The translations under genes were made by a program, and so were the position numbers. Below are positions 6,817 to 30,487 of a DNA stretch of 64,000 nucleotides, piece by piece (positions within the stretch are counted from its first letter, which is position 1; each line of letters opens with the position of its first letter). Origin of the DNA: Escherichia coli (GTDB lineage: Bacteria > Pseudomonadota > Gammaproteobacteria > Enterobacterales > Enterobacteriaceae); the NCBI RefSeq assembly GCF_044324785.1, contig NZ_CP172127.1. One strand, 5' to 3'. The notes beneath the pieces are model-generated. The model was not told where the DNA came from and did no database searches. It saw nothing but the letters and a program-made list of their open reading frames with translations.

Positions 6817-6827
6817 TGGATTTGCCC

Positions 6828-7733
6828 CTATATTTCCAGACACCTGTTATCACTTAACCCATTACTGGCCTGCTGCCGCAGATATTCCCGTGGCGAGCGA
6901 TAACCCAGTGCACTATGCGGATGCCATTCGTTATAATGCTCGAACGCCTCTGCAAGGTTCTTTGCTGCCGTTAACCCGTCTGGTTTAGGCATGATACTGA
7001 TGTAGTCACGCTTTATCGTTTTCACGAAGCTCTCTGCTATGCCGTTACTCTCCGGACTCCGCACCGCCGTGTTCTTCGGTTCAAGCCCCAACATCCGGGC
7101 AAACTGCCGTGTTTCATTAGCCCGGTAGCATGAACCATTATCCGTCAGCCACTCTACTGGAGACGCCGGAAGCTCGTTGCCGAAGCGGCGTTCCACCGCT
7201 CCTGGCATGACGTCCTGTACTGTTTCACTGTCGAAGCCGCCCGTAGTGACTGCCCAGTGCAGTGCCTCACGGTCACAGCAGTCCAGCGCGAACGTGACTC
7301 GCAGTTTTTCTCCGTTATCACAGCGGAACTCGAACCCGTCAGAGCACCATCGTTGATTGCTTTCTTTCACGGCCACTTTGCCAGTATGTGCCCGTTTCGA
7401 TGGCGGTACAGCGGTTTTTCGCTCAAGCAACAGCGCATTCTGGCGCATGATCCGGTAAACACGTTTGGCATTGATCGCAGGCATACCATCAAGTTCGGCC
7501 TGTCTGCGAAGCAGCGCCCATACCCGACGATAACCATACGTGGGCAGCTCTCCGATAACATGGTGTATACGGAGAAGCACATCCGTATCATCTGAGTGAC
7601 GGCTGCGGCGACCATCTTTCCAGTCATCGGTTCGTCTGAGAATTACGTGCAACTGCGCACGCGACACCCGGAGACAACGGCTGACTAAGCTTACTCCCCA
7701 TCCCCGGGCAATAAGGGCGCGTGCGCTATCCAC
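6828..7733 (-). CDS. insD: IS2 transposase OrfB (InsD)
   Basis: 301-aa ORF with rve-type DDE integrase core; recognised as IS2 InsD from memory. Confidence 0.9.
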
Positions 7734-13252: not shown

Positions 13253-14122
13253 TTATGCCTTGCTGCTTTTGTTCACTGTGCTTGCCAGGGCTTCCGGGTA
13301 GTGTCTGGCAATAATATCATTAAGCCTGTCAACCAGCTCTGGTTTCCTGAACGTGATGTGCGCGGAGCCCTTCTTAAAGTATCTGATGCTGAACATCTCA
13401 TCTTCATAGTCCTCTTTACCCTGAACAGACTGGATGTGATCATCCAGATGAATGGTGATGTTTTCCCGGTTGTCGGGGATCGGTTTGCCGCTGAACAGGT
13501 GTAGCATTCTTTCCAGATCGGCAAGTCGATCTGCCTGTGGGCCGTTGTTCAGATGAAACCCCCACCGGTCCCACCTCACCAGGTTGTTGACGATAATTTT
13601 ACTGCCAAATTTGCAGGGGCAATTGGTTTTGTAATTCCAGCTCAGTCCCCTGAAGACGTTGATCACCCCTCGCTCAAACACCTCATCCTTATTCTGGTGC
13701 AGTTGTTCAAATGTGCTCAGAATGTTCGCTTCGCAGATTTCCGGAAAATTATCGTACTCCAGTGACCGGTACCATGTATCACGGGCTTGTGCATCCATTA
13801 ATGACAGCATCCCTGAACGTTGCATCAGGTCACGCCAGAGTTCGCGATCGAGATTCCGGGTGATGGCTTTCATTGCGGTTTCCGGTTTCTCCATCAGCCA
13901 GCAACCGCAGCGAAAATCCTGTTTCATGGCCCAGTCCCGGGCGGTTTTACCTCCAATACTTTCTGTCATTGCTGATATTTCAGCCAGTTGCCGGATAAGT
14001 GTGTCGATTTGCAGCAGTGTACTCTTTCGTACAGCCAGAATGTGGCGGATACTGGTTGAGCAAATAACGTCCGTATGCCCGGTGACCACTTCCGGACGGG
14101 AGGCTGTGATATCTGACATCAT
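13253..14122 (-). CDS. Hypothetical protein (DUF4942-like, as often found next to cbtA/cbeA)
   Basis: 289-aa ORF; family name recalled from context, not verified. Confidence 0.4.
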   Translation of the reverse strand: MMSDITASRPEVVTGHTDVICSTSIRHILAVRKSTLLQIDTLIRQLAEISAMTESIGGKTARDWAMKQDFRCGCWLMEKPETAMKAITRNLDRELWRDLMQRSGMLSLMDAQARDTWYRSLEYDNFPEICEANILSTFEQLHQNKDEVFERGVINVFRGLSWNYKTNCPCKFGSKIIVNNLVRWDRWGFHLNNGPQADRLADLERMLHLFSGKPIPDNRENITIHLDDHIQSVQGKEDYEDEMFSIRYFKKGSAHITFRKPELVDRLNDIIARHYPEALASTVNKSSKA

Positions 14123-14203
14123 CGTTTTTCCTTTTGGTTTATAAACGAAAACGCCAGCTGTATTCAGGCTGGCGTCAGGGGAATGAAGTATGGTGAGTGA
14201 TAT

Positions 14204-14401
14204 TCACCGGTTCTGGTGCAGAAGCTGCAGTTGGCGCAGGGTACGGATATCTTCCCTGGCCTGTTCAATGCAGGGCAGCAGTGCTGTCGAATCCGTTTTA
14301 TCCTCATCGTTGTCAAAGATAATTTCCGATTCGCAGTCAATATTGTCCTGCAGCCACGCAATCAGAATATCCAGCGCTGTTTCCGTGGTTAATGATTTCA
14401 T
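14204..14401 (-). CDS. Small acidic hypothetical protein (DUF957-like)
   Basis: Likely start MKSLTTETALDILIAWLQDN inside track ORF 14204-14446. Confidence 0.4.
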   Translation of the reverse strand: MKSLTTETALDILIAWLQDNIDCESEIIFDNDEDKTDSTALLPCIEQAREDIRTLRQLQLLHQNR

Positions 14402-14412
14402 GTTGTTCCAGG

Positions 14413-14901
14413 TTACCAGTTGAAAGTGGGTAAACCCGGCAGGCATTCAGCGCTGGCATCCAGATGAATGAGACTGACGCCATAACGTCGGGTAAGTGTG
14501 ACAACCAGACGGCGGAACGTTTTTGACAGGCCCAGGCGCTTAAGCCGCAAAACCGGGTATGACCACGCATCGGTACGTAACAGATATCCGCTACCTGTGA
14601 AATGAATCCATTCTGATTCGCCGGTGTCATTCGTCTGATGTGACAGCGAGTACAACCAGGCATTGTCCGTTTCCGTGATATGTGCGGTACTGCAGCGTAT
14701 GCCGGTAAGGGCCGCAGATGGTGGCGTGCGCTCTGCTGATGCCCGGTCAGATTCATCAACAACACGAAGGGAGTAACCGTTATCGCAGACCACGTTAATC
14801 AGTTCAGCGAGAGTAACACCATCGACGTCAACGACAATGCGCCCCATGTTCAGTGCCTGCACGTTAATGCTGTCGGCTTCCAGCGTCAGGGCCAGTTTCA
14901 T
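14413..14901 (-). CDS. Hypothetical protein downstream of cbtA (YeeW-region protein)
   Basis: 162-aa ORF immediately 3' of the toxin gene; position-based call. Confidence 0.45.
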   Translation of the reverse strand: MKLALTLEADSINVQALNMGRIVVDVDGVTLAELINVVCDNGYSLRVVDESDRASAERTPPSAALTGIRCSTAHITETDNAWLYSLSHQTNDTGESEWIHFTGSGYLLRTDAWSYPVLRLKRLGLSKTFRRLVVTLTRRYGVSLIHLDASAECLPGLPTFNW

Positions 14902-15275
14902 TGTTTCGCCCCCGGATGTTTACCCAGGGTAATGTTATTTACCGTTCTGTAATTTTCGCGGGCCATCAGGCCGGTTGCCCGGCGTGCCCGGAGGATATCA
15001 ATACTGTTTATTAACTGAGAACGGGTACAGGCGCTGAATCCCGGCTGGTCGGTACGTACCAGCGCGTATTTTTCAACGAGAAAGTTCACCGCATCACACA
15101 GTGAAATGCCCGCTTCAATATGCTGCTCAATCACACGTTCATCAGCGAACGGTGTGTCATTCAGCGCGAGGCCGTAGTGCTGGTCCAGTAACCGGGTGAG
15201 CAGTGTCTGCCAGATGGTGACGGGAGACGGGCAGCACGATGCCTCCCGTACATGCGTGTCGGGTAATGTTTTCAT
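14898..15275 (-). CDS. cbtA: CbtA/YeeV-family type IV toxin
   Basis: Start MKTLPDTHVREASCCPSPVTIWQTLLTRLLDQHYGL...; strong resemblance to YeeV/YkfI/YpjF. Confidence 0.8.
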   Translation of the reverse strand: MKTLPDTHVREASCCPSPVTIWQTLLTRLLDQHYGLALNDTPFADERVIEQHIEAGISLCDAVNFLVEKYALVRTDQPGFSACTRSQLINSIDILRARRATGLMARENYRTVNNITLGKHPGAKQ

Positions 15276-15364
15276 AATGAAGATTTTCCTGATATGCAGA
15301 GATAAAAAATGGGACAGTGGCGTGGTGAAAGCACCAGGCCGGAGCAGAAGGTTATTCTGGAGAG

Positions 15365-15733
15365 TTACTTTTTCGTTTCGGGCGTCGGATAAACAGCCAT
15401 ATAAACGTAGCCACAACTGCCGAGGGTGTCGGCTTCGCAGGTCAGCCCTTTTGCATACAGTGTCACGGTATGCTGATGGCGGGGATTCAGTTCACCGCTG
15501 GTGAGCATGAGTTCCAGTTGTTTCATCAGCAGCGGAAAGGCCTGGTCCAGGTGGTACGAATCCGCGTCGCTGAACCGCCCTCTAATACAGGCGCGGTCGG
15601 CAAGGTAATGCAACCGGTTGCCTTCCTGTACCAGACGGGCACCAAAACAGGGCGTCACGGTGCAGGGCAGTCCCCACCAGGTGCGGTCGTTATTGTCGTC
15701 GGGAAGCGTTGTCCCGGGGAGTGTGTCTGACAC
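15365..15733 (-). CDS. cbeA: CbeA/YeeU-family antitoxin
   Basis: MSDTLPGTTLPDDNNDRTWWGLPCTVTPCFGARLVQEGNRLHYLADRA... matches YeeU/YfjZ/YafW. Confidence 0.85.
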   Translation of the reverse strand: MSDTLPGTTLPDDNNDRTWWGLPCTVTPCFGARLVQEGNRLHYLADRACIRGRFSDADSYHLDQAFPLLMKQLELMLTSGELNPRHQHTVTLYAKGLTCEADTLGSCGYVYMAVYPTPETKK

Positions 15734-15812
15734 GATAAAATCCTCACAGAAAATTGGTTAAGAATGGTCCGGTGGTGGCGATAATTCTGCTCTTCTGAAT
15801 GCCCTTCCAGAC

Positions 15813-16034
15813 TCAGTTCAGGGTGACGCTCATCAGCCGGACATACGGACCAAAACTGTCCTTCCGGCGTTCTGCAAACACAGCCAGCACACCGGGAATA
15901 TCCTGTACTTCACGGCCGGTATATGTATCCGTGCTACCGTGTCAGCGGTATTTACCGGTACAGAACGGAAAAAGACGGGATGCAGGATGCTGACGGTGAA
16001 TACGCATGGCTTCACCACGGGTGATGATTTTCAT
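15813..16034 (-). pseudogene. YeeT/YpjJ-like (DUF987) gene with in-frame TGA at codon 31
   Basis: MKIITRGEAMRIHRQHPASRLFPFCTGKYR*HGSTDTYTGREVQDIPGVLAVFAERRKDSFGPYVRLMSVTLN; TGA at 15942-15944 where homologs have Trp. Confidence 0.7.
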
Positions 16035-16120
16035 GAGAATAGTCCTCCTGAATGTGAAAGTAAGAAACAGCTGAGAAAGAGAAACTGAAGTGATATGAAG
16101 GTGATTGTGACGGTGACGGG

Positions 16121-16597
16121 TTAAAGCAGACCGTGTTCCGCAAAGGAGAAAACCTGGCTGCCACCGATTATCAGATGGTCCGGTACCCGGATATCCACCA
16201 GGGCCAGTGCCTGTACCAGACGCTCGGTGATAAGGCGGTCTGCCTTGCTGGGGATGACTTCACCGGACGGGTGATTGTGCGCCAGCACCACGGCAGCGGC
16301 ATTGTGGTACAGGGCGCGTTTAATCACCTCCCGGGGATGGACTTCTGTGCGGTTGATGGTGCCAGTGAAGAGGGTTTCACCGGTAATCAGCTGATTCTGG
16401 TTATTCAGATACAGCACCCGGAATTCTTCACGCTCCAGTCCCGCCATGTTCAGAATCAGCCATTCCCGTGCCGCATGCGTGGAGGTGAAGGCCACGCCGG
16501 GTTCATGAAGATGGCGGTCCAGGGCTTTCAGGGCCCGCTGAATGAGGCTGCGCTCGCCGGGTGTCATCTCTCCGGGCAGAAAGGAAAGCTGCTGCAT
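16121..16597 (-). CDS. RadC-like JAB-domain protein (YeeS/YfjY family)
   Basis: HNHPSGEVIPSKADRLITERL JAB/MPN motif; track ORF 16121-16612, start probably MQQLSF. Confidence 0.8.
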   Translation of the reverse strand: MQQLSFLPGEMTPGERSLIQRALKALDRHLHEPGVAFTSTHAAREWLILNMAGLEREEFRVLYLNNQNQLITGETLFTGTINRTEVHPREVIKRALYHNAAAVVLAHNHPSGEVIPSKADRLITERLVQALALVDIRVPDHLIIGGSQVFSFAEHGLL

Positions 16598-16612
16598 TGT
16601 CCCTGCCTCCAT

Positions 16613-17098
16613 TCAGTCGATGATGCGCATAATGGCGCTGCATTCCGGATGCTGCAGGGCATAATCCCGCAGCCGGTAATAATGAACCGTCATGGCATAA
16701 TTCTCTGTACGACAGGCGTGATGGCTGTACGCCATCAGACAGGCGGCAATGCCGGCGGCTTCCGGGCTCATTTCAGCGCGGTTACCGTTCATGACGTTAA
16801 ACAGCACCCATGTTTCGTCATCATCGTCATCCGGTTCAGGTGCCATAAATGCGCCACCGTTGTTCAGGGTGTACAGATTCCAGATGCCCCCGCAGTAGTC
16901 TTCGCACAGACGGTCCATCCAGCCGAAGACACGGGGCTCCAGGGTCACCCACTGTGGAATGAGGCCAAAATGCTGCGGCCAGAAGCTGATGCGCTGTTCA
17001 TCAGGGACGGGAGTGGCAACCAGTTGAGACTGGTTATTCCCTGATGCAGTAGTTACGGAAACAGAAGGTGTGGTGGAGCTATGCGAAAAGGTTGTCAT
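16613..17098 (-). CDS. Antirestriction protein (ArdB/KlcA-like, YfjX/YafX family)
   Basis: 161-aa ORF with conserved core FWPQHFGLIPQWVTLEPRVFGWMDRLCEDYCGGIWNLYTL. Confidence 0.75.
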   Translation of the reverse strand: MTTFSHSSTTPSVSVTTASGNNQSQLVATPVPDEQRISFWPQHFGLIPQWVTLEPRVFGWMDRLCEDYCGGIWNLYTLNNGGAFMAPEPDDDDDETWVLFNVMNGNRAEMSPEAAGIAACLMAYSHHACRTENYAMTVHYYRLRDYALQHPECSAIMRIID

Positions 17099-17189
17099 GA
17101 GATGATTCCTTATAAAAAGTAAATGAATGGAAGAATGCCTGGGGACTGGTACAGACGTGAGTCAGGGCTGCACTTTCAGGGAAACAGCA

Positions 17190-18008
17190 TCAGCGCATGC
17201 TCTCCAGCAGCGTTTCTGCCATCACCCACAACGCCCGGTTGAGCTTAATGTCGGTATCGATGCTGTGAATGGCCCGGGTATGGATACGTTTTCCTCTGGC
17301 ACTGCGACCGGAAATCCCGCCTTTCAGCATATTTTCCTGGATGGTCTGATAAGCACTCCACAGGTCCTTACCGTAATCCTCCCGGCGTCGTGGCGTCAGA
17401 ATGTCGGTAGTGGTGACGGGCTGATGTTCATCACCATAACGGTAAGTCAGCGCCGCCTGTGCCAGCGCCTGGCGTGCCGGTGGCGGCAGGACCAGCGACT
17501 GCATGGCATCACGCTTTTCCTCAATCCGGTCAAACACGCCCACCACTTCGTAAGCACCTTCAATCACCCTGTCCACCACGTTTCCCCGGTGGGGCACCCG
17601 GACTTCTCCCAGCGACTGACCGCAGACCAAGCCATTGGTGCAGATGGCACGAAAATATCCGGGTAACATCTGATAGCTGGATGAACCGTCATGGGAGTTG
17701 AGCAGAATAATTTCAGGCACATGCTGACCGGTTATCTGTCCGGCCCGCCGCAGACGCAGCATATGTTTGGTATATTCCCGGCGGCTCTGGTCGCGCACAC
17801 GGGTCTGGCAGGCGAAGAACGGCTGAAAGCCTTCCCGCTGCAGATTTTCCAGGACGGTGATGGTGGGAATGTACGCATACCGTTCACTGCGGGAGGTGTG
17901 CCGGTCTTCTCCAAAAATACTCGGGACGTGGTACATCAGTTCTTCGCGTGTCAGTGGGCGCTCCCGACGGATCTGATTTACATGACCAAAACGACTGGCT
18001 AATTGCAT
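17190..18008 (-). CDS. DUF932-family protein (YfjQ/YafZ-like)
   Basis: 272-aa ORF in the position between the regulator block and the antirestriction gene; family recalled by eye. Confidence 0.6.
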   Translation of the reverse strand: MQLASRFGHVNQIRRERPLTREELMYHVPSIFGEDRHTSRSERYAYIPTITVLENLQREGFQPFFACQTRVRDQSRREYTKHMLRLRRAGQITGQHVPEIILLNSHDGSSSYQMLPGYFRAICTNGLVCGQSLGEVRVPHRGNVVDRVIEGAYEVVGVFDRIEEKRDAMQSLVLPPPARQALAQAALTYRYGDEHQPVTTTDILTPRRREDYGKDLWSAYQTIQENMLKGGISGRSARGKRIHTRAIHSIDTDIKLNRALWVMAETLLESMR

Positions 18009-18097
18009 ACTTTGCTCCTTATGAATGAATTAGCGGTATAAACGAAAAGGCCGCGTCTCCCGGAGAAGACGCGGCCTGATGGATGAAATGAAGACGT

Positions 18098-18331
18098 TTA
18101 TTGCCTGAGAATTCCCTCACTGGCGAGATACGAATTTAGCTGTTTTCCGGCATCAGGTTCAAAATTCCAGCACCGCCAGCGTAGCTGCCCTTCGGCATTG
18201 CGGATAACCAGCCGGAAATGCGTTCCCTGGTCATCTTCAATAAGCACATTGCGGTAAGCTGTTGTGACGGCAACCGCCTGTTCGCGTGAGAAAGGGCCTT
18301 CGGGCAATAAAACAGGGTGGCAGTCCGACAT
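18098..18331 (-). CDS. Small DUF905-like protein (YkfF-like)
   Basis: 77-aa [31 protein letters not shown]...WNFE pattern. Confidence 0.45.
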
Positions 18332-18336
18332 ACCGG

Positions 18337-19014
18337 CTATTTTCCGATAAATTCAACGCTGGCGCCGGTGGCATTACCGTCAGCACCAACCGTGACGGTC
18401 ACTTTGTCGTACGCACGGTCTTCAGGATTGAATACTTCAAACTCAACCTTATTGCCTTTTACTTCGTAAGAGCCAAAATCAGCGGTTTCTGTTGTTTCCT
18501 CGTCATATTCCCGGGCGTATGCCTGCCGGGCAGCCTGCAGGACGGAATCTTTATTAATAGTGGTCGTCTGTTTCGGGGAAAAACCGGCAAGTGATGTGAC
18601 AAATTTCGGACAGACCTTCAGCATATCACCGCGGGTGAATTCCATTCGTACACCAAATGCCTGTAAAACGGACACATCACGCTCTGCTATGGAGTGAACG
18701 GCTTTTTTGACCATTTCCGGCGCCTGTCCGATTTCCACCTCAACAGCCCTGAATCCCGTCTGCTGATTACACATTTGTGATGTGGGGATCAGGTTACCGT
18801 TAATACTGATACGGCTGCCCAGGAGCGTCTGTACGCCATTCGGGCATCCCTGCATCAGGCCGGTAATACCAATCGTGCCATTTTTCAGCATTACCAGCGC
18901 CTGACCATCTTCCGTCATGGTCTGACACCAGCCGTTTTTGACAGCCCAGTTGCCGGCGGAGGCGGAGAATGATGCCACAGTGAACAGCAGGGGAAAAAGA
19001 GCTCTGGTATTCAT
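18337..19014 (-). CDS. Secreted protein or lipoprotein, YafY/YfjS-like
   Basis: Start [20 protein letters not shown] is a signal peptide; track ORF 18337-19119. Confidence 0.5.
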
Positions 19015-19161
19015 GACTGACCTCTGAAATGAACGTACGGTGTTATTGATAATGATGGAAGGTATGCAGTGACTGTTCAGGGAATGACGTAGCCGTATAT
19101 TTAGTTTTCTGTTCAACATATTGTCTCCATACCTGTCGGGACGGCTTTGGCAGGCCGGCGA

Positions 19162-19842
19162 TCACAGGTTAAAGGTGTTGATAAGTTTATGGATGAAAGA
19201 GAAATGTGGCAGGGCGGAGATAAAACGCTCTTCAGCGACCAGACTGTGGATGTGGCCTCTCCGTTCAAACCGTTCTGATGTCAGGCTGACTGATTTGATA
19301 TCTGCCAGAGGAAAGACCTGCAGTTTTCCCTTCTGTAACGCGATCAGATACCAGCTACCGCTGTAATAAATGAGCCGGCAGGGCTCCAGTGACGGATACC
19401 ATCGCTCAGTCATCAGAGAGATGTGGATACACTGTCTTATTGCCAGGATGAGTTGCGAGAAACACTCGGGGAACGTTGCAGTGATATCCGGCGCCGGTAG
19501 CCAGATAAGGCAGGGAGAGGGCTCCTGGTTGTCGGTAAGACAGGTTATCAGTCGTCCGTTCCGGAGCGGAAGTATCCGTGCGATCCCGGTATTCTGTATA
19601 AAAGAAAGCATTTCAGGGATCGCACCCGGGCTGCTCTGTCGTCTGAGGCTGTACCTGCCATTTCTGTACTCTAAATCCAGGTGAACCAGACGCTGATGAA
19701 AATCGCGCTGTAAAGTACGTTCTGTAACGCCAAATTCATCTGACAGTGTTTTTAGTGACAGAGATTCTCCGGCCATCAGTCGGCTGATAATGAGTGATAA
19801 GCGAACCGCCAGGCGATCATGCCGGGAACGATTATCAGACAT
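19162..19842 (-). CDS. YfjR-like transcriptional regulator (HTH plus WYL-like)
   Basis: 226-aa ORF; N-terminal HTH LSLKTLSDEFGVTERTLQRDF. Confidence 0.6.
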   Translation of the reverse strand: MSDNRSRHDRLAVRLSLIISRLMAGESLSLKTLSDEFGVTERTLQRDFHQRLVHLDLEYRNGRYSLRRQSSPGAIPEMLSFIQNTGIARILPLRNGRLITCLTDNQEPSPCLIWLPAPDITATFPECFSQLILAIRQCIHISLMTERWYPSLEPCRLIYYSGSWYLIALQKGKLQVFPLADIKSVSLTSERFERRGHIHSLVAEERFISALPHFSFIHKLINTFNL

Positions 19843-20044
19843 AGATGTGCACTCCGTAAGAAAACATCTTTTATTTCATGATGTTATTATGCATCATGAT
19901 GTTGAAAGGATGTGTCGCATCCGGATAATCAGGAATAAAATGCAGCAGAAAAAATATTCTTTTAATTATCTGATTTTTAAGCATGATTTCATAAAAAGAA
20001 GAATGCTCGTTAATGCAGCGACACATCCTGTCGGCGTGAGTGTG

Positions 20045-20929
20045 TCAGAACAGACGCTCCCACAGTGTGATCAGCAGGTGGATAATGCGGTCCCGGGCTT
20101 TACGCAGAAGCTGTAACATCCAGGCCGGAAAACTGAAACGGGCAACGGCGACGTCAAAACTTTTCCCGATGGTTTCACCAAAAGTCTGTTGTGCGTGTTT
20201 CTGGGCCTGTTCAGAGCGGTTTTCTCCCCGGATATGTGAATACACCGCGCTGGTTGCCTGTGGTGGCAGTGCGTGGATCATCAGCGACACAAACGCCGGA
20301 AGGTTCCAGCCGACAGGTGCAGCAACGGAGAGTACCGGAAATGATGAAGGGAACAGGGTTGCCACCCGGGCTGTCACCGTCGCCAGTGAGAGCGACTGCT
20401 GACGGGACGGGCATTTTTCTGTGGCATTCCATTCTTCAGCAGGAAACACGCGATCGGCATGGCTGAGAACAAACAGAAAACGCGAGGGATCTGCGCCTTC
20501 ATTCAGTAAAAACTGATGCATGGCAATATCAGCAGCATACGCACGTTCATCAGCCCGCAGGATCCAGATAATCAGATCCAGTTCCGGTAGCAGCTGACGA
20601 TAAAGTGTCCGGTATTCCTGATCATGCTGCGGTGTTTCACCAATGCCGGGCAGATCGACCAGCGTCATTCTGCGTTCACCGAACTGCAGGGTAAGACGAT
20701 GAGCCTGGCGGGTGCAGCCGTTCAGAGGATGTGTGGCGCAGATACGGGACTGAAAAATGGCATTACACAGACTGCTTTTGCCTGTTCCGGATTTACCCAT
20801 AATGCCAATCACGGGCTCGTAATGAATAACACTGTGGAGATGTTCAAGGATTTTCTGGCGAATTTCTTCAGGAAGAAACGTCAGATGTGATTTCACTTGT
20901 GCGGAGAGGGAAGAATGGCTGAATGACAT
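20045..20929 (-). CDS. YeeP/YkfA/YfjP-family GTPase
   Basis: P-loop GIMGKSGTGKSS and DLPGIGE G3 motif. Confidence 0.8.
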   Translation of the reverse strand: MSFSHSSLSAQVKSHLTFLPEEIRQKILEHLHSVIHYEPVIGIMGKSGTGKSSLCNAIFQSRICATHPLNGCTRQAHRLTLQFGERRMTLVDLPGIGETPQHDQEYRTLYRQLLPELDLIIWILRADERAYAADIAMHQFLLNEGADPSRFLFVLSHADRVFPAEEWNATEKCPSRQQSLSLATVTARVATLFPSSFPVLSVAAPVGWNLPAFVSLMIHALPPQATSAVYSHIRGENRSEQAQKHAQQTFGETIGKSFDVAVARFSFPAWMLQLLRKARDRIIHLLITLWERLF

Positions 20930-21034
20930 ACCGTTATCCTGTTGATTTCGCTGAACCGGATCACACTAATCCGGCTTATCATTCAGGTAATATGGACGTG
21001 AAAAAATCTGGAGTGACAGAGTGCGGGAGGTGAG

Positions 21035-21997
21035 ATGACGGCACAACAAAGTGATGCGCTGCGTGAGATTGCTAATAAGGCCAGAGTTACCACCATTCTT
21101 CAGTGTAAGGCCTGGAAAGATACCCAGCGAATACTGAAGCGCAGCGGACTCGTGTGCAGAGAACGGTCAGAGCCGTTTGATCCGGAGAAACATTTTGACT
21201 GTTATACGGTGCGTTATCTGTACCTGCTTAACATAATGGCACTTGAGCTAAAGTCAGATACACGGATTAAGGTTGAGGTGGGGCAATGGTATCGCATGAC
21301 GGGTAAACGTTTATCACTTAATGTCCCGCCTTTTATGCTGATCCCGCGTAATATCCGGAGAAAAGTGGACGGATTCAGACAATCCAGACAATCAGAAGAT
21401 GAAGCAACCAAAAATCCGCCTCAACCGTTCACGGGCAGTTTGTATAAGGTTTTGAGCAGGGACAGCGATTCGGCTGAGCTGGACGCCTGGTTTGCTGAAC
21501 CGCCGCTGACACGGCAGGAAGTGTGGGAGGGGAGGCGTGTTACAGATTTTGATCCATGGGCGCTGTCTTCGTTTATTTGCCGTTCAGAATCCCCGACGTT
21601 TGAACTTTTTTACCAGGAATATAAGCGACTGGGATTAAAATCTCTTTTTGTATCAGGGGTAATGTTTGAACAGTTTTTAACAGGGCTAAGTTTCAGAAAA
21701 TATGGGGACTGGGTTGAATCTCAGTTACTGGAATCACTGGGAAATGTGATGTTTTTCATGCTGCTTTATGACATGGAAAATCTGGATAAGTTTATAAAAG
21801 AACTGATGGACATTAATGTTCAAAGTGAAGATTCGAAGGAAAAAGGGAAATCACGAAAAGAGAGAATGCTGGAGTATATCAACTCATATATCCGCAATGT
21901 TTATGGAAGATTCCTTTGTACGTCAAAAGAAAGGTACGAACAGCATAAACGCAAAAACAGCAGCAAAAAGAAAAACGGTTCTGGTGGAACTCATTAA
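21035..21997 (+). CDS. Hypothetical protein, no recognisable family; basic Lys/Ser-rich C-terminal tail
   Basis: 320-aa ORF; ATG at 21035 preceded by GGGAGG; stop overlaps stop of convergent ORF. Confidence 0.5.
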   Translation: MTAQQSDALREIANKARVTTILQCKAWKDTQRILKRSGLVCRERSEPFDPEKHFDCYTVRYLYLLNIMALELKSDTRIKVEVGQWYRMTGKRLSLNVPPFMLIPRNIRRKVDGFRQSRQSEDEATKNPPQPFTGSLYKVLSRDSDSAELDAWFAEPPLTRQEVWEGRRVTDFDPWALSSFICRSESPTFELFYQEYKRLGLKSLFVSGVMFEQFLTGLSFRKYGDWVESQLLESLGNVMFFMLLYDMENLDKFIKELMDINVQSEDSKEKGKSRKERMLEYINSYIRNVYGRFLCTSKERYEQHKRKNSSKKKNGSGGTH

Positions 21998-22863
21998 CGG
22001 GAATAATCCCCTGCTGTTTTCTGCATAAACAGACGATCAGCTGATAAGATGAGTTTATCCAGCATTTCAGCCTGCGTCAGATTATTCTTTTTTGCCATTT
22101 TCCGGAGTGCATTCCTGGCTTCCGGAGAAATCAGGGCACTTATCTGTACCCGGGAATCGGTTTTCTCATACCGGAACATTTTCTGGTATGAGCACTTCAT
22201 GCGCCTGAGAAAATCATTCTGCTGATAAACTAATTCTTTTAACTTTTGAGGTTCAGTACCGACAGAATAGATTTTCATGAAGACACGGCGCACATAAGCT
22301 ATTATGAACAGACGTGACTCCCCTGAAGCTTTAAATTCTGAAATATCAGGACAGTGACGTTCTTCGTCAGTGCAATGTTTTTGCAGATACGCCCATGCCC
22401 ATTTGATATGTATCCGCCGGGAACCAAGCCATGTCATGGGGTTCACTTTTTCAGCATATGACCATAAAAAATGAACGACATACAAGAAGTCAGATACATT
22501 TTCTGTCCCGGTTAGCCTTATAAGCTCCTGTAGCCATTTTCTCGTCACACGAATCCTTGCCTGATGATTAGCTGGAGCTGCTTCTGTGGCAAACAGTCTG
22601 GCATACAGACAGGAAGTTCCGTAATCTGCATATTGCTCACCTGAGAGTCGGACAATACTGTCAGGAACATGATATATAAACATCCATACCCAGAATGCGG
22701 CTACAGGGTCTTTTTGCACCCACTCCGGAACAACGTCTCTGCCTGCATTATCAGCATTAACAGAAGGTGATTTATCGTTATGTCGGTAATATTCATATTC
22801 CATCCGACTAAAAACATGATCAGATTCATCTGGTGAATGCACAGACATGAACTCCCTGGGCAT
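21994..22863 (-). CDS. Hypothetical protein with C-terminal RHH-like segment
   Basis: 289-aa ORF; C-terminal SPEARNALRKMAKKNNLTQAEMLDKLI; alternative start at Met6 (22848) preceded by AGGGAG. Confidence 0.5.
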   Translation of the reverse strand: MPREFMSVHSPDESDHVFSRMEYEYYRHNDKSPSVNADNAGRDVVPEWVQKDPVAAFWVWMFIYHVPDSIVRLSGEQYADYGTSCLYARLFATEAAPANHQARIRVTRKWLQELIRLTGTENVSDFLYVVHFLWSYAEKVNPMTWLGSRRIHIKWAWAYLQKHCTDEERHCPDISEFKASGESRLFIIAYVRRVFMKIYSVGTEPQKLKELVYQQNDFLRRMKCSYQKMFRYEKTDSRVQISALISPEARNALRKMAKKNNLTQAEMLDKLILSADRLFMQKTAGDYSR

Positions 22864-23810
22864 AAATGCACAACCAACTCTATAGAACTCTTTACCCCCC
22901 CTCTTATCACCTCTGTCAGTAAATTTCGCCTGAATCCCCTTTTATCCATACATCAGAAAAAATGCAATAACGTTCATGGACTCTTTTCTCTGATTTACAT
23001 AAAAACACAGAAAATTACAATGTGATTAATATCGCGTTTTTTTAAAAAATTATATTGACATCATGTTATTTCCTGTAGTTTGCAATAAAAAATTTTCTTA
23101 AAATATTTATATGAATATTTTTGATGCCTCAACATGCTGTCGTTATATAGAGTGTCTTCTCATCATTTATGGTTATTTCTCTCAATGCGCATACGCTCTG
23201 TCAGGGCATGTCTGTAGCTGCCATGATGGGGAATGAGAACTCAGCAAAAGGATTTTGGATGCAGTGAAGTTCTCCCGGAGACGGTTCTTCTGAGGTGGGG
23301 GTGGCATCATATCCTCTTACATAAGATGATGGCGTGCGCGGGAAAGCTTTCTTCTGTACTCAGGTTGTTGTTGGTTATCCCCGGTCGTCATTGTTTTCCT
23401 GACATTAAGATCCTGATTCCAGGATCTATAGCACAGTCGTTTCCTTGTGTGCTGTTATGCTTCTGCTCAGTTCAGAACAATTGCTTCATCCGGCATGGAG
23501 AATTCCGGTGAGTGAGGCAGTAAGAAATGACTGACATGAATGTTATATGTGAAGGGGCCGGAGAGACGTCATAATCAGTATGGCTGTCATTCTGGCTGGA
23601 AAATGCGATCACTTTCCGGGGTAAAAGACAACATGGAAGCTGACGAACGGGATGCTCCGGATGGTCTTTTCAGGGAGGCCTGGGTAAATAATTTCAGAGT
23701 AAATCTGTATGTTTTTTAAACAGTAAAGATCCATGCTGGCCGTGAAAAACTGAAATCAACACTCAGTCTGCATGGATGTCTGAAGATGTTGAGAATGTCG
23801 GGAATGGTAC

Positions 23811-23954
23811 TATACACGTATTTTACTAAGTATTTTTACTAAGCATTTCAGTAAGTGTTATACACGTATTTTCTACTAAGTGTTTTACCAGACATACACG
23901 TATTTTCATAAACACTTCTACAAGTGTTTTCGTTAAGCATTGCTATACACATCC
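23811..23954. repeat. Iteron-like direct repeats in a 1.6 kb AT-rich non-coding region
   Basis: TATACACGTATTTT at 23811 and 23859, ATACACGTATTTT at 23894, degenerate CTATACACATCC at 23943; interspersed ACTAAG and AAGTGTT motifs. Confidence 0.6.
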
Positions 23955-24468
23955 AGTTTAGTAAATCTTTACGTTAACTAAATCAGTTTAATGCTGCTGT
24001 AAAACCTTTCTGTTTAAGCAATCAATCTGCTATTCGATTTTACTGATGTTACGTTTAACCTTTCCTTAGATTTCGAGTTTCGACGTTAGCTTGAGAAAAG
24101 TATCTTTACGTAAAGCCCAGTGAATTAACTCAAATCCGATTGAGGTAACCTGATGCGATTTACTGTGAGTTTGCGATAACACTGTTAAATGGCTTATGGA
24201 TGATTTTGTAACGGCGAGATTGATAAGGTGATTAACTGGCCCTGGTGTTTTTTCTCAGCGTAAGGTGATTATCTTCATCATAAGGCTCTTTTCAGAAAAA
24301 GTGTGATGATTGGTTGTGGTGTTTTGATTCAGATGAGGATCTGCCAATGATTATGATGTATTGTAAGAAATAACGCCTTCAGAATGTTGGAGCATGCACT
24401 TACACAAACTGTTTTTCTAAAATTAAGGGAACAGTTTAAAGAGTATAAACTGTTCATCTTCTTCAGGA

Positions 24469-24999
24469 TTAAGCTACATTGTTGTTATGACTGACAGGAT
24501 TGTTTTCTTCCCCTGACTCTGGGCTTAACAGTCCCTGGCGTTGTAGATATTCACTGACTGACATTCCAGAACTACGGATCCTGTCAGAGATTTTACGAAA
24601 TTGATCCTTCCATTCTGCAGGTAATTTCTTAATTTGTCTGACTTTACAGGCTACACTGTACGGGGTTCGCCCTAGTTTCTCTGCCAGCCAGAAAAGGTGT
24701 TTACCAATTTCATCGTCCGGTACATCCTCCAGAACATCTCGCAATAAACTCTCGTCTGCCTCATTCCATGCCACACCAGCATTTGGGAAACGAGGATCGA
24801 TCTCTCTTTCCTTCTTCTCCTTCTTACTTTGCTCTTTTCGGGATGATACAGATACGACAGAACGTTCTTTTACCGCTGTAATTGCCATAACTGCATTGAG
24901 CAGAGATCTGCGCTCCACATCGTTCAGCATTTTTCCTTCACAGATCAAATCATTCAGGATGTCAATGACTAGATTCAGACTTTCTTCTGTTAGCTTCAT
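24469..24999 (-). CDS. Hypothetical protein, possible DNA-binding (helix-rich, acidic and basic patches)
   Basis: 176-aa ORF; ATG at 24999 with AAGG upstream; 10-bp perfect inverted repeat just 3' of the gene. Confidence 0.5.
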   Translation of the reverse strand: MKLTEESLNLVIDILNDLICEGKMLNDVERRSLLNAVMAITAVKERSVVSVSSRKEQSKKEKKEREIDPRFPNAGVAWNEADESLLRDVLEDVPDDEIGKHLFWLAEKLGRTPYSVACKVRQIKKLPAEWKDQFRKISDRIRSSGMSVSEYLQRQGLLSPESGEENNPVSHNNNVA

Positions 25000-25668
25000 A
25001 TTTCAGACCTTGAAGTATGTAGATAATCAGCACAATTACTAATGTGATAAATATCAGAAGATAATTTACAGGTAAACCGGAAAATACATCTGAAGAATAA
25101 AGGCCTCAGCTTAACGTTTCAGCCAGTTTGTGAGCTGATTGAGGTACGGCGATGACATTAACGGGAATTACTCCCCTATAGCTCTGAGCTTATTTTTCAC
25201 CCTGGCAACATATGGTGGCTACTGCGCATGGTTTTGGAGTAGATATCTTACTACTCGTAGAATTGTGCTTACTGGTCAGGCCAGCGCACAGGCATTCCGT
25301 GCAATCAATAGAACACTGGTTTTTTAGTCTTCCGTTACCCATCAGGATGTTAGTGCAGATTCCGGTGTATTCGATCAGTTGTTCGGCGAATCAGCGATCG
25401 ATCACGATGCGATTTCGTATGTTAGGGATGCTGGTATGATTACTCGCTGAAAAATAATGTGAAAAGGCAGTTTTTCTTTAGACATTTAGCTCATTCATGC
25501 TGTTGTTTTACGTTTTGCTGTCGTGTGCAGGATTATCTTTTCGTTACGGGACGATTCATTCCGTTTTAATCAGGAGCTATTGGCGTTGCTCATTGGTGGG
25601 ATGCCGTAAAGTTTTACCGCGGCGATTAATGATGTGAAGTCAATCCAAATCAACGGAGATCTCTCATC

Positions 25669-26400
25669 ATGAATCAACCAATACACAATGATTACTGGTT
25701 ATCCCGTTTTGAAAGTATTCTCAACAGTGCCCTGGTGCAACACCGTGCCGTCTCGTTAATCCGGGTGGATTTACGTTTCCCTGAGCATATGCCTGTCACC
25801 ATCATGGATCCCGATCCGGATTCAGCGGTGATTTCTCGTTTTTTCGAATCCCTGAAAGCCAAAATTCAGGCTTACCAGCGGAAAAAACGACGTACCAACA
25901 AGCGTGTGCGTGCAACCACCCTGCATTATTTCTGGTGTCGGGAGTTTGGCAAGGAAAAAGGCAGGAAACATTATCACGTGATATTACTGCTCAACAAAGA
26001 TACCTGGTGCTCGCCAGGGGATTTCACCGTTCCTTCTTCGCTGGCGACGCTGATCCAACTGGCATGGTGTAGCGCTCTGCATCTTGAGCCCTGGCAGGGT
26101 AATGGACTGGTTCATTTTTCCAGGCGGACGCCTTTCCGTAAACCGGCATCATCTGATGCTCGCCCTTCTTCCGATGATACGCCTTTGTCGGGTGGATGTT
26201 CTGAAACCAGGAAGGCTTCAGACAAAAAGCCGGGTGAAGCCGCTGTTCTCTGGATCAAGCGTGGTGATGTGGAAGCGATGCAGAAAGCCATGGAGAGAGC
26301 CCGTTATCTCGTGAAGTATGAGACGAAGCAGCATGACGGTTCTGGTCAACGTAATTATGGTTGCAGCCGTGGAGCGGGGCGTCTACTGGATGGCAGGTGA
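25669..26400 (+). CDS. Gp2/YagK-like family paralog (HYHV motif)
   Basis: 243-aa ORF; RKHYHVILLLNKDTWCSPGD; ACGGAGAT upstream of ATG. Confidence 0.5.
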   Translation: MNQPIHNDYWLSRFESILNSALVQHRAVSLIRVDLRFPEHMPVTIMDPDPDSAVISRFFESLKAKIQAYQRKKRRTNKRVRATTLHYFWCREFGKEKGRKHYHVILLLNKDTWCSPGDFTVPSSLATLIQLAWCSALHLEPWQGNGLVHFSRRTPFRKPASSDARPSSDDTPLSGGCSETRKASDKKPGEAAVLWIKRGDVEAMQKAMERARYLVKYETKQHDGSGQRNYGCSRGAGRLLDGR

Positions 26401-26726
26401 ACCCTGTAAAAAGGCATCCGGTGCCAGAGTATATGTCACAGTAAGGGCGTGGTTGACGCCCTTAGCTCGTTTTCTGAAAAAGTCGTCCTGAAGTCATGCA
26501 ATGTTTCCTGGTTTTCATGCATCCATCATTTGTCGCTGCGATGCCAGACTTCTGGATGCACACATGTTGTTTTACTTTTGTCAGCATCATAAATGCGCCG
26601 GGACTGGTGAATGGAGATAAGCCATTTTATTATCGACGTCAGCGAACATACTCACCATGCCGGTATGTTCCTGAACTGAACAATAAGTTTTGCGCTGATT
26701 ACAGTATGTGAAGGAGGTCCGTTACA

Positions 26727-28331
26727 ATGAATTCCGCTTATATGCAATCCTTGCAGACATCCCACCACTTCCCAGCTGATTTAACCTACAGATTATTTCC
26801 TAGTGAGCTTGCATATCTCATTGACGACTTATATGAAAGTACCCAACTTCCGCTGGAGCTCATTTTTAATACTGTACTGGCAACGCTCTCACTCTCCTGT
26901 CAGTCACTGGTTGACGTTGTTCATCCTCACACCAACATGCCGGAACCCTGCTCACTTTATCTGTTGGCAATCGCAGAGCCAGGCGCGGGAAAAACAACGA
27001 TAAACAGACTGGTGATGAACCCCTGTTACGAATTTGCCGATCGACTCATTCAACAATACGAAGAGAGAAACAAAGATTATAAGACTGAACTACAGATCTG
27101 GAATACCCGGCAGAAAGCGCTTGCTGCCAATTTAAGAAAGGCTGTTAACCGGGGGTATCCGGGGGAACAGGAAGAAGAGGCGCTGCGTAATCACGAAAGA
27201 AATAAACCGACACGTCCGGTTCGACCGAATTTTATCTATGAAGATGTTTCGCTTAAAGCGCTTGTGGAAGGGCTCAATGAACATCCTGAGGCAGGGGTTA
27301 TTTCTGACGAGGCGGTCACTTTTTTCAGAAGCTATCTGAAAAATTATCCGGGCCTGTTGAATAAAGCATGGAGTGGACAACCGTTTGATTTTGGACGGGC
27401 TGACGAGAAATACCATATCACGCCACGTCTGACATTTTCGTTAATGTCCCAGCCGGATGTCTTTACGAATTATATAAATAAAAATGACGTACTGGCGTGG
27501 GGAAGCGGATTTCTTTCCCGGTTTCTGTTCAGTCAGACCGGAAGTCCTTCCCGGGTACGGGATTATACGAGAGGCGAGTTCAGAACAAAACCAACCCTGG
27601 AGAAGTTTCATAAAAAGATTAACGGATTTCTGTTAAGCCATAACATTAATTCCCCCGGTATGAGCACCGAAAGGAAAACATTAAAACTTGCAAAGAAAGC
27701 GTTGGGGGAGTGGCAGGAAAACCAGATTAAGATTGAAAGAAAAGCGCTTGCAGGAGGGGAGTGGGAACACATCAGAGATATTGTTCTGAAAGCAGGTTCT
27801 AATATACTGAGGATAGCTGGAATATTCACCTGCTATTGCTATAAAGATGCTGAGGAAATTGAATCAATTGCGCTTTTTAAAGCTATGCATCTCATGGACT
27901 GGTATCTGGAGGAGGCGAGCACAATATTTTATCCCATGTCTGCACGATGCCAGTTTGAACAGGATGCCTGTGAACTGTATGCATGGATTATGACCCGAAT
28001 AAGGCAGAATAATTGGCGTGCTATCAGGAAAACAGACATTGAAAGATATGGTCCCAATCGTCTGAGAAGAGCAGAAAAACTTACACCTGTACTCAATCAG
28101 TTAATCGCTCAAAATTATTTCCGTATCATCAAGATGCGATCGCATCAGGCACTTTATGTTTCTGCTCTTGATAATAATGGTTACATCCTTCCTTTCGGCG
28201 CAATGTCTTACGAACCGTTTGATATTGTTCCACCCCAGTATAACCATAATGCGAAAACATATTCCGTTGTTATTCCACCGGCATTAATTCAGTCATTTAC
28301 ACCTGATTCCTCAGCTTACACCTTATTTTAA
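26727..28331 (+). CDS. YfjI-like P-loop protein (DUF3987-like), putative NTPase
   Basis: 534-aa ORF; Walker A AEPGAGKTT; strong SD GAAGGAGG. Confidence 0.6.
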   Translation: MNSAYMQSLQTSHHFPADLTYRLFPSELAYLIDDLYESTQLPLELIFNTVLATLSLSCQSLVDVVHPHTNMPEPCSLYLLAIAEPGAGKTTINRLVMNPCYEFADRLIQQYEERNKDYKTELQIWNTRQKALAANLRKAVNRGYPGEQEEEALRNHERNKPTRPVRPNFIYEDVSLKALVEGLNEHPEAGVISDEAVTFFRSYLKNYPGLLNKAWSGQPFDFGRADEKYHITPRLTFSLMSQPDVFTNYINKNDVLAWGSGFLSRFLFSQTGSPSRVRDYTRGEFRTKPTLEKFHKKINGFLLSHNINSPGMSTERKTLKLAKKALGEWQENQIKIERKALAGGEWEHIRDIVLKAGSNILRIAGIFTCYCYKDAEEIESIALFKAMHLMDWYLEEASTIFYPMSARCQFEQDACELYAWIMTRIRQNNWRAIRKTDIERYGPNRLRRAEKLTPVLNQLIAQNYFRIIKMRSHQALYVSALDNNGYILPFGAMSYEPFDIVPPQYNHNAKTYSVVIPPALIQSFTPDSSAYTLF

Positions 28332-28930
28332 AACAATTTTGTGAGTAGAAAACGAAAATCATAATCCTTCGAATGAAGGTTGATGATAAGGTGTGTTGCA
28401 TATCCTGCACCTGTGCAAATATTCACCAATTATTGGGTGTGAATGAAAATTTCTCTGAAAAAATCGCTATGGTAGCAACAGTAGCAGCACATACACTACA
28501 TCTGTGATTTGGTTTTGTTTTCATAATGACCTGCTGTCAGAGCTGATTGAATGCTGGGATGTGCGCACTGGTGGAAGAGTGGTTTTCGTTTCAGATATAA
28601 CGAAAGGCAATCGAAAGATTGTTTTAAACATGGATTAAAGCTAATCATTAACCATATTGTGTGAGTTTTTATATATAAGTTTGTTTGATTCTTGCCGTGA
28701 TGAGTGCTGGGGTATATGACGATGTCGCTCTCTTTCTGAATAACAAATTATTATTCGTCTGTTACTGATAAGGGATGCGATTCATGTTTTAATAGATGGT
28801 TGAAGAAAATTAATTTGATATTTTTTTTGTAAGGGAATGGAACTGTCCGGAATATGTTCAGAACGGCGGATTTCTCATTTCCATTCATTAAACATGGATA
28901 ATTTTAATTTAGGTTTATTACTATTATTAT

Positions 28931-29047
28931 ACTCACTCCCTTTTTGATATAATCTCTATTGTTATTTACTTCCTGTCTTTACTCACTCCCTTTTTCATAC
29001 AATCTCTATTGTTATTTACTTCCTGTCTTTACTCACTCTCTATCTTT
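28931..29047. repeat. Tandem 50-bp direct repeat: two copies plus a partial third
   Basis: 28931-28980 and 28981-29030 differ at 2 positions; partial third copy ACTCACTCTCTATCTTT. Confidence 0.7.
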
Positions 29048-29920
29048 ACGATTATATTCACTCTATCGTTACACATTCCATTAGTATTACTCTTGTTATC
29101 GTATTCATTCCATCCCTCAATCATATTTACTGTAACTCATATGATGTTCAGGTAAGTTATTCTCTACCATTCTACTGATGATATTCATCTGTTCTCATTT
29201 TCACTGAAACAGCAATTAATTTTAATCTTATCCATCATGAGCTGTATTTTCTTAACAATGGTTGTTTATCTGAAGTGTTTTAACTATTCTGATGAACATC
29301 AATTCTTTTGTCATTACTGATTAACCGAATGTTTACTTTTTGATAAGGTATCCATGATTCTGTAACGATTAACAGAGCTGGATAAACAATGGAATTGACA
29401 GGAGAGATTCCTGATTATGTTTGTTCTGGGTTGTATTATCTAAGATGCAGGATGAAAATCATGTCAGTGGTATTTTTTATTCTGCTATCGTGAGCCGTGA
29501 ATGTTCATGTCCTTAAGAACAGATTGAATGAGCGCATATAAGTTTATTGCATTGGCCTTGTACACAGTTTTTACAACCACTGAGAGCAAGTTTGTAGTTT
29601 ATGATGTGATTGGTCGCAATATGTTTCTTAACCTTCTGGACGTGGTGTTTTATCGCGTATTTACAGTATTTCGTGATGTTTTATTGAGTCTGTATTTTCT
29701 TTACTCCTCGTTTATCTCATCTCTTTAGCTAATACCATCAGATAATCCATTTCTTTCTGCATAATGCTGCGTATCGTTAATAACCCGTCGTATCCATTCT
29801 GCTACAGCATGCCTGATAAATACCATCTGTAAGTTATTACCGTTTTAGATCTGATTATGAGCGAAAGCATTAATTCGTTCACAGAGCTTAAAACATCATT
29901 AACTTTCAGGAGTCATCAAC

Positions 29921-30487
29921 ATGCCTAAATCTTACACACCAAACTGGTTTTTTACCGCTTTACTTGACAATCACATCAATCAAATGATGGCACGCTATTC
30001 CTGCCTGCGGGCCTTACGGATGGATTTCTTCTACAGGAAAGATACGCCTGATTTCTTACAACCTGATCATCGCTGGCTTGAATTGCAGTTGCGTATGCTG
30101 CTGGAGCAGGTGGAACAATTTGAAAATATCGTTGGTTTCTTCTGGGTGATTGAATGGACGGCTGATCATGGTTTTCATGCGCATGTGGTTTTCTGGATCG
30201 ATCGTCAGAGGGTTAAAAAAATATATCCCTTTGCGGAGCGGATAGCGGAATGCTGGCGGTCTATTACGCATAACAGCGGTTCGGCACACCGCTGTACATA
30301 TCAGCCGCATTATACATACAACATCAACATTCCTGTGCGCCACAACGATCCTGAAAGCATCGATAATATTCGCGGTGCCCTGCATTATCTGGCAAAAGAA
30401 GAGCAAAAAGACGGGCTGTGTGCCTACGGCTGCAATGAAGTTCCTGAACGTCCTGCTGCAGGGCGTCCTCGTAAGCCTCACTTCTGA
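29921..30487 (+). CDS. YagK/YfjJ-family protein (inovirus Gp2-like)
   Basis: 188-aa ORF; HGFHAHVVFWIDRQ H-x-H motif; paralog of ORF at 798. Confidence 0.65.
   Translation: MPKSYTPNWFFTALLDNHINQMMARYSCLRALRMDFFYRKDTPDFLQPDHRWLELQLRMLLEQVEQFENIVGFFWVIEWTADHGFHAHVVFWIDRQRVKKIYPFAERIAECWRSITHNSGSAHRCTYQPHYTYNINIPVRHNDPESIDNIRGALHYLAKEEQKDGLCAYGCNEVPERPAAGRPRKPHF

Follow-up and report, generated by a model that had tools for sequence, protein, structure and literature searches.

A fast-diversifying, orphan-fold protein family in one lineage of enterobacterial YeeP-GTPase islands forms, in Escherichia coli, a bounded allelic cassette with a putative RHH-type partner gene

The gene described here, hereafter the focal gene, lies between a GTPase operon and a convergent partner gene in an Escherichia coli genomic island of the YeeP-GTPase (CP4-like) type. 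Positions refer to the window, the whole 64,000-nucleotide stretch of DNA that was analysed, and the features that frame the locus are the following.

20045–20929, − strand: YeeP/YfjP-type (Era/MMR_HSR1-like) GTPase gene, divergent from the focal gene
20930–20996, − strand: conserved control region upstream of the GTPase gene, defined by alignment
21000–23760, no strand assigned: hypervariable allelic cassette, made up of the focal gene, the partner gene and the partner's upstream non-coding region, delimited by sliding nucleotide identity
21025–21030, + strand: Shine–Dalgarno sequence GGGAGG, 4 nt 5′ of the focal ATG, read from the sequence
21035–21997, + strand: focal coding sequence, 320 aa, an ATG-started ORF with homologues, a structural model and dN/dS below 1
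21994–22863, − strand: partner coding sequence, 289 aa by ORF (the RefSeq start at 22848 gives 284 aa)
22864–23230, no strand assigned: AT-rich region upstream of the partner gene, a candidate promoter/operator region
23811–23937, no strand assigned: iteron-like direct repeats TATACACGTATTTT, three copies starting at 23811, 23859 and 23893

The GTPase gene is the first of a string that continues with genes for a WYL regulator, DUF905, DUF932, antirestriction, RadC and CbeA/CbtA. A reading made earlier from the sequence alone had the focal gene adjoining a GTPase of the YeeP/YfjP type; the neighbour was named correctly, but the two genes are divergently transcribed, with 105 bp between them. 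On its other side the focal gene converges with its partner, and the two 3′ ends overlap by 4 nt, an overlap also present at locus L009, in a homologue 32% identical. The start signals given in the sequence-only reading are in place, an ATG preceded at 4 nt by a strong Shine–Dalgarno sequence and opening a 320-aa ORF, and so is the Lys/Ser-rich, basic C-terminal tail that it described, which reads ...HKRKNSSKKKNGSGGTH. In the control region upstream of the GTPase gene, a −10-like box, ATATTA, occupies 20993–20988 on the − strand, only 42 nt from the focal ATG, so that the predicted promoter of the focal gene must overlap it. The same region contains a hairpin, CCGG-N11-CCGG (20956–20974), and an outer stem in which 20919–20933 pairs with 20972–20986 and which covers the GTPase start codon.

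The focal ORF is a genuine coding gene, as the conservation of its homologues, its dN/dS below 1 (0.39–0.64) and a confident alignment-based model together demonstrate. Full-length homologues keep length and motifs down to 21% identity. E. coli 55989, 2/0 and NCTC9064 carry an identical coding sequence, annotated in RefSeq as hypothetical protein WP_000126799.1, and DNA similarity to the gene is found in 741 of 5,426 complete E. coli genomes, extending over at least 80% of the gene length in 187 of them. That the RefSeq label says merely 'hypothetical' is the one point in favour of a spurious ORF or a decaying pseudogene; homologue conservation, the dN/dS values and the AlphaFold model rule this reading out, the identical protein is present in many genomes, and we give the reading next to no credence.

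The protein belongs to a previously undescribed family that has an orphan fold and no described relatives. Pfam matches neither the focal protein nor any of 24 aligned members, NCBIfam, PADLOC and the PDB (searched by sequence and by profile) contain no match to it, and its sole annotation match, a weak one (E 0.0015), is to a PHROG without assigned function. The sequence-only reading had recognised no motif in the protein, regarded the gene as uncharacterised and proposed profile and structure searches. Those searches bear it out, returning no match to a characterised family, no known family and no known fold. A profile search of 1.84 billion cluster-representative proteins retrieves 48 family representatives, many of which are fragments, and the named members are all enterobacterial 'hypothetical proteins'. 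Relatives at 21–37% identity to the focal protein come from several enterobacterial genera and from gut metagenomes. Word-indexed profile searches add no further distant members of the focal or the partner family, and a search of the open-access literature by accession numbers and gene-set terms finds no description of the focal family. Distant full-length members (22–30% identity) have in common the motifs AWxNTQxxLKRSG, FxFxxVRxLYxL and I(V/I)PxxIRRKxDxFxQ, as well as GSLYxxL, SPTFxLxxLECxRLG, LGxALFFxxLY and a basic tail. Residues W27, P104, K110, L136, Y137, E195 and F241 are invariant in the family and form no recognisable catalytic motif, and no conserved membrane-disrupting features are visible in its members.

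The AlphaFold model of the focal protein, with a pLDDT of 87.2 and a pTM of 0.85, depends on an alignment that contains distant homologues; with close homologues alone, the pLDDT is 44.8. The model is mostly alpha-helical, with a small beta-hairpin at residues 80–84 and 100–104 and a basic C-terminal tail, and it matches no solved, viral or annotated predicted fold. A search of AFDB50 with the model returns solely uncharacterised relatives, from Escherichia, Hafnia, Citrobacter, Salmonella and Serratia. No winged-helix Rep-like fold (the WH1–WH2 arrangement of the RepE/RepA/pi type) is detected, and the focal protein is rejected on this ground as an iteron-type Rep protein. The family is hydrophilic and basic throughout. 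The pI is 9.34 for the focal protein and 9.1–9.9 in 24 of 24 members examined, with net charges from +8 to +25, and the tail carries a net charge of at least +2 in 22 of the 24. With all members basic and nearly all tails positively charged, the nucleic-acid binding suggested in the sequence-only reading is plausible.

The partner consists of an N-terminal domain of ~230 aa without known relatives and a C-terminal segment resembling a ribbon-helix-helix (RHH) at approximately residues 235–274. The match of this segment to NCBIfam RepA PRK13702 is sub-threshold (E 7.5e-5, 22.7 bits against a cutoff of 87), and the same ~40 residues weakly match an Arc-like repressor PHROG (5.7e-3), Pfam RHH_1 (8.9e-3) and Pfam RepB-RCR_reg (best 1.1e-3); precomputed PF10723 matches are found on E. 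coli relatives of the partner. Across loci the partner measures about 256–320 aa, and its dN/dS is 0.3–0.5. Searched with HMMs built here, all 12 loci that have a family member of ~300 aa contain a homologous convergent partner, and the family is almost always paired with this small, DNA-binding-type gene. In relatives, the partner is divergent from the AlpA and Gp2-like genes. In E. coli 2/0 (L002 20963–24614), an IS66-family element (ISCro1) splits the partner while the focal gene is intact, and the leftover C-terminal partner fragment is listed in RefSeq as 'replication regulatory RepB family protein'.

Only one lineage of enterobacterial YeeP-GTPase (CP4-like) islands carries the focal family, which lies there in inverted orientation between the RHH-type partner gene and the GTPase operon. 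Seven distant homologues were located in public assemblies for gene context, and wherever enough DNA is available the order is uniform: a divergent GTPase gene ~100 bp away, the family gene, a convergent gene for 256–320 aa and, beyond it, AlpA, Gp2-like (YagK/YfjJ) and Zn-ribbon genes. Beside a closely related GTPase, the slot holds the same one family in every occupant inspected, comprising 10 E. coli loci, 8 metagenomic contexts and loci from Citrobacter, Klebsiella and Trabulsiella. None of 50,697 phage genomes contains the family, and among 72,556 plasmids it occurs in two, both from E. coli.

A scan that started from the GTPase, with one genome per species, gave 80 loci across Enterobacterales, 72 of them with usable upstream sequence. 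The slot upstream of the GTPase gene contains the focal family in 4 of these 72. Where the GTPase is at least 51% identical to that of the window, four of five scanned loci have the family, and the slot of the fifth, L086, holds a partner-family gene alone. In 23 of the 72 loci there is no focal-family gene, and a co-directional partner-family gene immediately precedes that of the GTPase; among them are loci of Providencia, Proteus, Morganella, Serratia, Yersinia, Hafnia, Kluyvera, Salmonella diarizonae and Pectobacterium. The remaining 45 have other genes in the slot. The partner-like genes lie as follows, with L numbers denoting the loci compared.

About 5800–6950 in L027, L029, L030, L039, L045, L047 and L059: partner-like gene of about 285–400 aa, upstream of the GTPase gene
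L076–L086, L091, L096 and others, likewise at about 5800–6950: partner-like gene of the same size range, upstream of the GTPase gene

Their occurrence upstream of the GTPase gene in 23 of 72 loci suggests an ancestral partner–GTPase operon.

Position and orientation in the island backbone are kept where the GTPase is at least about 51% identical (the window, ten E. coli loci, L007–L015 and L021–L024) and fail in CP4-57 and in loci whose GTPase is 45% identical or less. In CP4-57 of K-12, YfjP is 36% identical to the window GTPase, the interval contains abpAB, yfjM and rnlAB, and none of the ORFs, YfjH and YfjM included, matches the focal or the partner HMM. The gene is therefore largely a conserved backbone gene in the island lineage with a GTPase of at least about 51% identity and not universally, as CP4-57 and the count of 4 in 72 loci indicate. 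The sequence-only reading had taken it for exchangeable cargo in a variable slot, a view that the single family, its fixed position and its near-absence elsewhere contradict; the varied contexts expected of mobile accessory cargo are not found, and all recovered contexts share one synteny. Its statement that the locus differs between E. coli islands is correct, in that variants exist, all of them alleles of one family.

In E. coli, the focal gene and its partner make up an allelic cassette with sharp boundaries. In comparison with four other E. coli islands, a nucleotide identity of 94–100% falls to background at about 21000 and is back at 84–100% at about 23500–23760. Inside the cassette dS ranges from 0.36 to above 1, compared with 0.06–0.18 in the GTPase gene, for which dN/dS is 0.13–0.18. 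Between genera, protein identity is 21–37% for the focal family and 20–37% for the partner, compared with 51–71% for the GTPase, 65–79% for DUF932 and about 50–72% for the WYL regulator. Within E. coli, it is 95–98% for the GTPase and 26–28% for the partner, and in the focal protein 64–85% for the N-terminal part and 34–37% for the C-terminal part. The focal gene thus co-diversifies with its partner at a pace well above that of the remaining island genes.

E. coli islands with GTPases 95–98% identical include divergent short alleles with a partner at L016 and L018, which are 80% identical to each other in the C-terminal part of the focal protein and 70% in the partner. Alleles group by the C-terminal part as they do by the partner, and unlike their grouping by the N-terminal part; this difference implies a recombination breakpoint inside the focal gene, with the C-terminal part travelling together with the partner. 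The association of the C-terminal part with the partner could reflect physical adjacency alone, since recombination breakpoints give an identical pattern. The cassette variants are old allelic lineages kept between recombining conserved flanks. As to their origin, the likeliest history is that the partner–GTPase arrangement is ancestral and that the focal gene came to lie inverted between the two in one sub-lineage, the Escherichia-like one, to which the focal family is limited and in which it was then inherited and diversified with the partner. Very different cassette alleles are accompanied by the same Gp2 allele, by shared iteron-like repeats and by a GTPase that is nearly identical, so that the specificity of the cassette is unmatched to any visible island-encoded target; it suits an external target, such as a phage, a plasmid or another island, at least as well.

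Some alleles of the family are longer, at 376–417 aa, and have no partner. They are located as follows.

L005, 4869–6092: long allele
L017, 4453–5583: long allele
L022 and L024, about 5720–6890: long alleles
L023, 5451–6704: long allele

Six of six long alleles carry an N-terminal C-x4-C...LC-x2-HY, in full C-x4-C-x15–17-LC-x2-HY, which matches no Pfam family and is probably a zinc finger. The motif is common to the long E. coli proteins and their relatives in Citrobacter freundii, Klebsiella oxytoca and Trabulsiella, and in Trabulsiella (L023) the long allele is co-directional with the GTPase gene, not divergent from it. The long proteins match the family HMM at E 1e-11 to 1e-17 in a three-sequence test and at about 1e-8 among a few thousand ORFs. 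Pfam returns nothing useful for the 407-aa variant of UTI89, and the idea that this protein is a fusion of the focal protein and its partner is rejected, as the partner HMM finds no match in it. With the Cys/His motif in all six long alleles and a partner in none, the core domain appears to be paired either with an RHH segment in trans or with a finger in cis; no locus seen combines the two.

In the AT-rich region upstream of the partner gene, a sigma-70-like site (TTTACA, 16 nt, TACAAT; 22994–23021, + strand) points away from the partner, and beside it is a near-perfect AT-rich palindrome at 23100–23121, AAAATATTTAT/ATGAATATTTT. Site and palindrome are candidates for a divergent promoter and its operator. 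The iteron-like repeats lie in the non-coding, conserved right flank of the cassette, where 23811–23937 also includes TACTAAG sub-repeats. They recur in UTI89 (L005 6607 and 6639) despite its different cassette allele, and may mark an origin or another cis site.

We tentatively propose that the focal protein is not an enzyme, that it associates with nucleic acid and that, together with its partner, it makes up a module for allele-specific control of the island. Association with nucleic acid without catalysis is suggested by the pI of 9.1–9.9 in all 24 members and by the invariant residues, which form no catalytic motif. The protein would act on DNA together with a DNA-binding module, either the RHH partner in trans or the Cys/His finger in cis, and its C-terminal half would provide the contact to the RHH partner. 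The two would constitute an allele-specific control, or 'immunity-like', module placed between the excision/replication genes (Gp2-like YfjJ, YfjI and, in relatives, AlpA) and the GTPase/antirestriction/RadC/toxin–antitoxin operon. Transcription of the focal gene would oppose expression of both the partner and the GTPase operon, given its convergence with the one without a terminator and its promoter overlap with the other. Consistent with an immunity module, hypervariability is confined to the candidate regulator genes and the adjacent non-coding region, between conserved flanks; that no operator repeats were identified counts against the control-module reading.

The main rival is a conflict system, in which the pair, or the single gene with its fused zinc finger, would serve in anti-phage defence, in anti-defence or in the exclusion of competing islands or helper elements, and the hypervariability would be the outcome of an arms race with an external target. 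We consider this a real possibility, though not a probable one. Deeply divergent alleles between near-identical flanks argue for it, as do the dN/dS of 0.39–0.64 compared with 0.13–0.18 for the GTPase, the lack of coupling between cassette alleles and those of neighbouring island genes, the presence in the equivalent interval of K-12 CP4-57 of abpAB and rnlAB, both known to act against phages, and the abundance of defence genes in related island classes (PMC12595487). However, PADLOC-DB 2.0, searched at E ≤ 0.1, has no family for the focal protein, the partner or the neighbouring 176-aa, Gp2-like and YfjI-like proteins, the WYL regulator being the sole match among the proteins tested. Moreover, the family is confined to one syntenic position and absent from the phage collection, whereas defence systems usually change contexts; conserved catalytic or membrane-disrupting features are not visible; and a convergent arrangement is unusual for a two-gene defence operon. 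A more specific form of the idea, which we rate as rather unlikely, is that the cassette is a previously unrecognised allele-specific conflict/immunity system built into the island backbone, with the RHH partner or the fused finger recruiting the orphan-fold protein. The DNA-associated protein would then sense or block an external element, whether helper phage, conjugative plasmid or rival island, and frequency-dependent selection would keep the divergent alleles.

Less likely than both the control module and the conflict system are the spurious ORF dealt with above and two further readings. An accessory role in replication or segregation of the excised island, with the focal protein as an origin- or iteron-binding or copy-number control factor that works with the RepB/CopG-like partner and a Gp2-like rolling-circle initiator, would agree with the resemblance of the partner C terminus to RepA/RepB copy-control RHH proteins, with the nearby genes for the Gp2-like initiator and a YfjI helicase-like protein, and with the iteron-like repeats that adjoin the cassette. 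It is improbable all the same: unrelated cassette alleles share a Gp2 allele and the repeats, the model shows no winged-helix Rep-like fold, and across the wider family of islands the gene linked to the partner is that of the GTPase, not the Gp2-like one. We attach very little probability to a toxin–antitoxin-like addiction pair that stabilises the island, with the RHH protein as antitoxin and regulator. RHH domains are common in antitoxins, and the two genes strictly co-occur and co-evolve, but they are convergent rather than co-transcribed, both proteins are large (320 and 289 aa) with the RHH segment at the C terminus, and long alleles exist without any partner. In addition, strain 2/0 retains an intact focal gene beside a partner split by IS66, which is unexpected if the partner were an essential antitoxin. 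A type II toxin–antitoxin pair in particular is rejected by the convergent genes, the large proteins and the lack of any match to a toxin family or fold.

By functional analogy and not by membership, the cassette most resembles the immunity or master-repressor regions that temperate phages and satellites carry, such as lambdoid cI–cro and SaPI Stl/Str. The likeness lies in deeply divergent homologous alleles flanked by a conserved backbone, and in a DNA-binding-type gene at a divergent promoter region beside excision/replication genes. The cassette differs in having no sequence or fold relationship to these regions, in that a weak RHH at the C terminus, or else a Cys/His motif, takes the place of an HTH as DNA-binding element, and in its second, convergent orphan-fold gene; repression by the cassette is putative. 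The last ~40 residues of the partner match the CopG/RepB-RCR_reg/RepA(CopB) regulators weakly and concordantly (PF10723, PF01402, PRK13702), but those regulators are stand-alone proteins of about 45–85 aa, whereas the partner has 256–320 aa with an extra N-terminal domain, and the focal protein itself shows no similarity to them.

Comparison with other islands separates position from homology. The yfjJ–yfjP cargo of CP4-57 (abpAB, yfjM and rnlAB) occupies the same general interval, between the Gp2-like and GTPase genes, with no homology to the focal family and beside a GTPase 36% identical; that cargo consists of known defence and toxin–antitoxin systems that occur in other contexts, whereas the focal family is confined to its slot. 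The Shigella SRL pathogenicity island contains orf42–45 between its AlpA/Vis and YeeP genes, listed as having 'no similarity' (PMC6980539); these share interval and island type with the focal gene and its partner, a comparison made by position and listing alone (PMC6980539). Islands of the intY–alpA–Gp2–RadC type in Pseudomonas, which integrate at tmRNA and are moved by jumbo-phage transduction, have many uncharacterised core ORFs (PMC12595487). They share integrase, AlpA, inovirus Gp2-like, RadC and HTH proteins with the island studied here, but belong to another genus, with no YeeP-type GTPase mentioned and no homologue of the focal family reported (PMC12595487).

Islands with the WYL regulator–GTPase segment are present in 1889 of 5426 complete E. 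coli genomes, about a third. To our knowledge, almost nothing is known of how these islands are controlled. The analysis adds an undescribed, orphan-fold protein family together with its obligate partner, maps the sharply bounded hypervariable cassette that the two occupy, and corrects the assumption that the gene beside the GTPase is interchangeable cargo. The cassette offers a handle on allele-specific island behaviour, be it activation, exclusion or defence.

Both an RHH-type partner and a structured GTPase leader recur widely in the broader family of islands. More than 60 loci of other Enterobacterales (L021–L100) have a box and a hairpin of variable sequence upstream of the GTPase gene. 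The order is a (G/T)ATAT(T/C)A(T/C)C box, GTGAA(T), the hairpin, TTCAC, a Shine–Dalgarno sequence and the ATG; the hairpin varies in sequence and keeps its position, and in many cases it is GC-rich and leads into a U-run, as in a terminator or attenuator. Hairpins of unrelated sequence are not alignable, and the leaders were folded one by one; about half of them fold with z below −2. Rfam has no match to the leader element and gives nothing convincing over 14000–30000 of the window. The element looks like an undescribed promoter joined to a structured leader.
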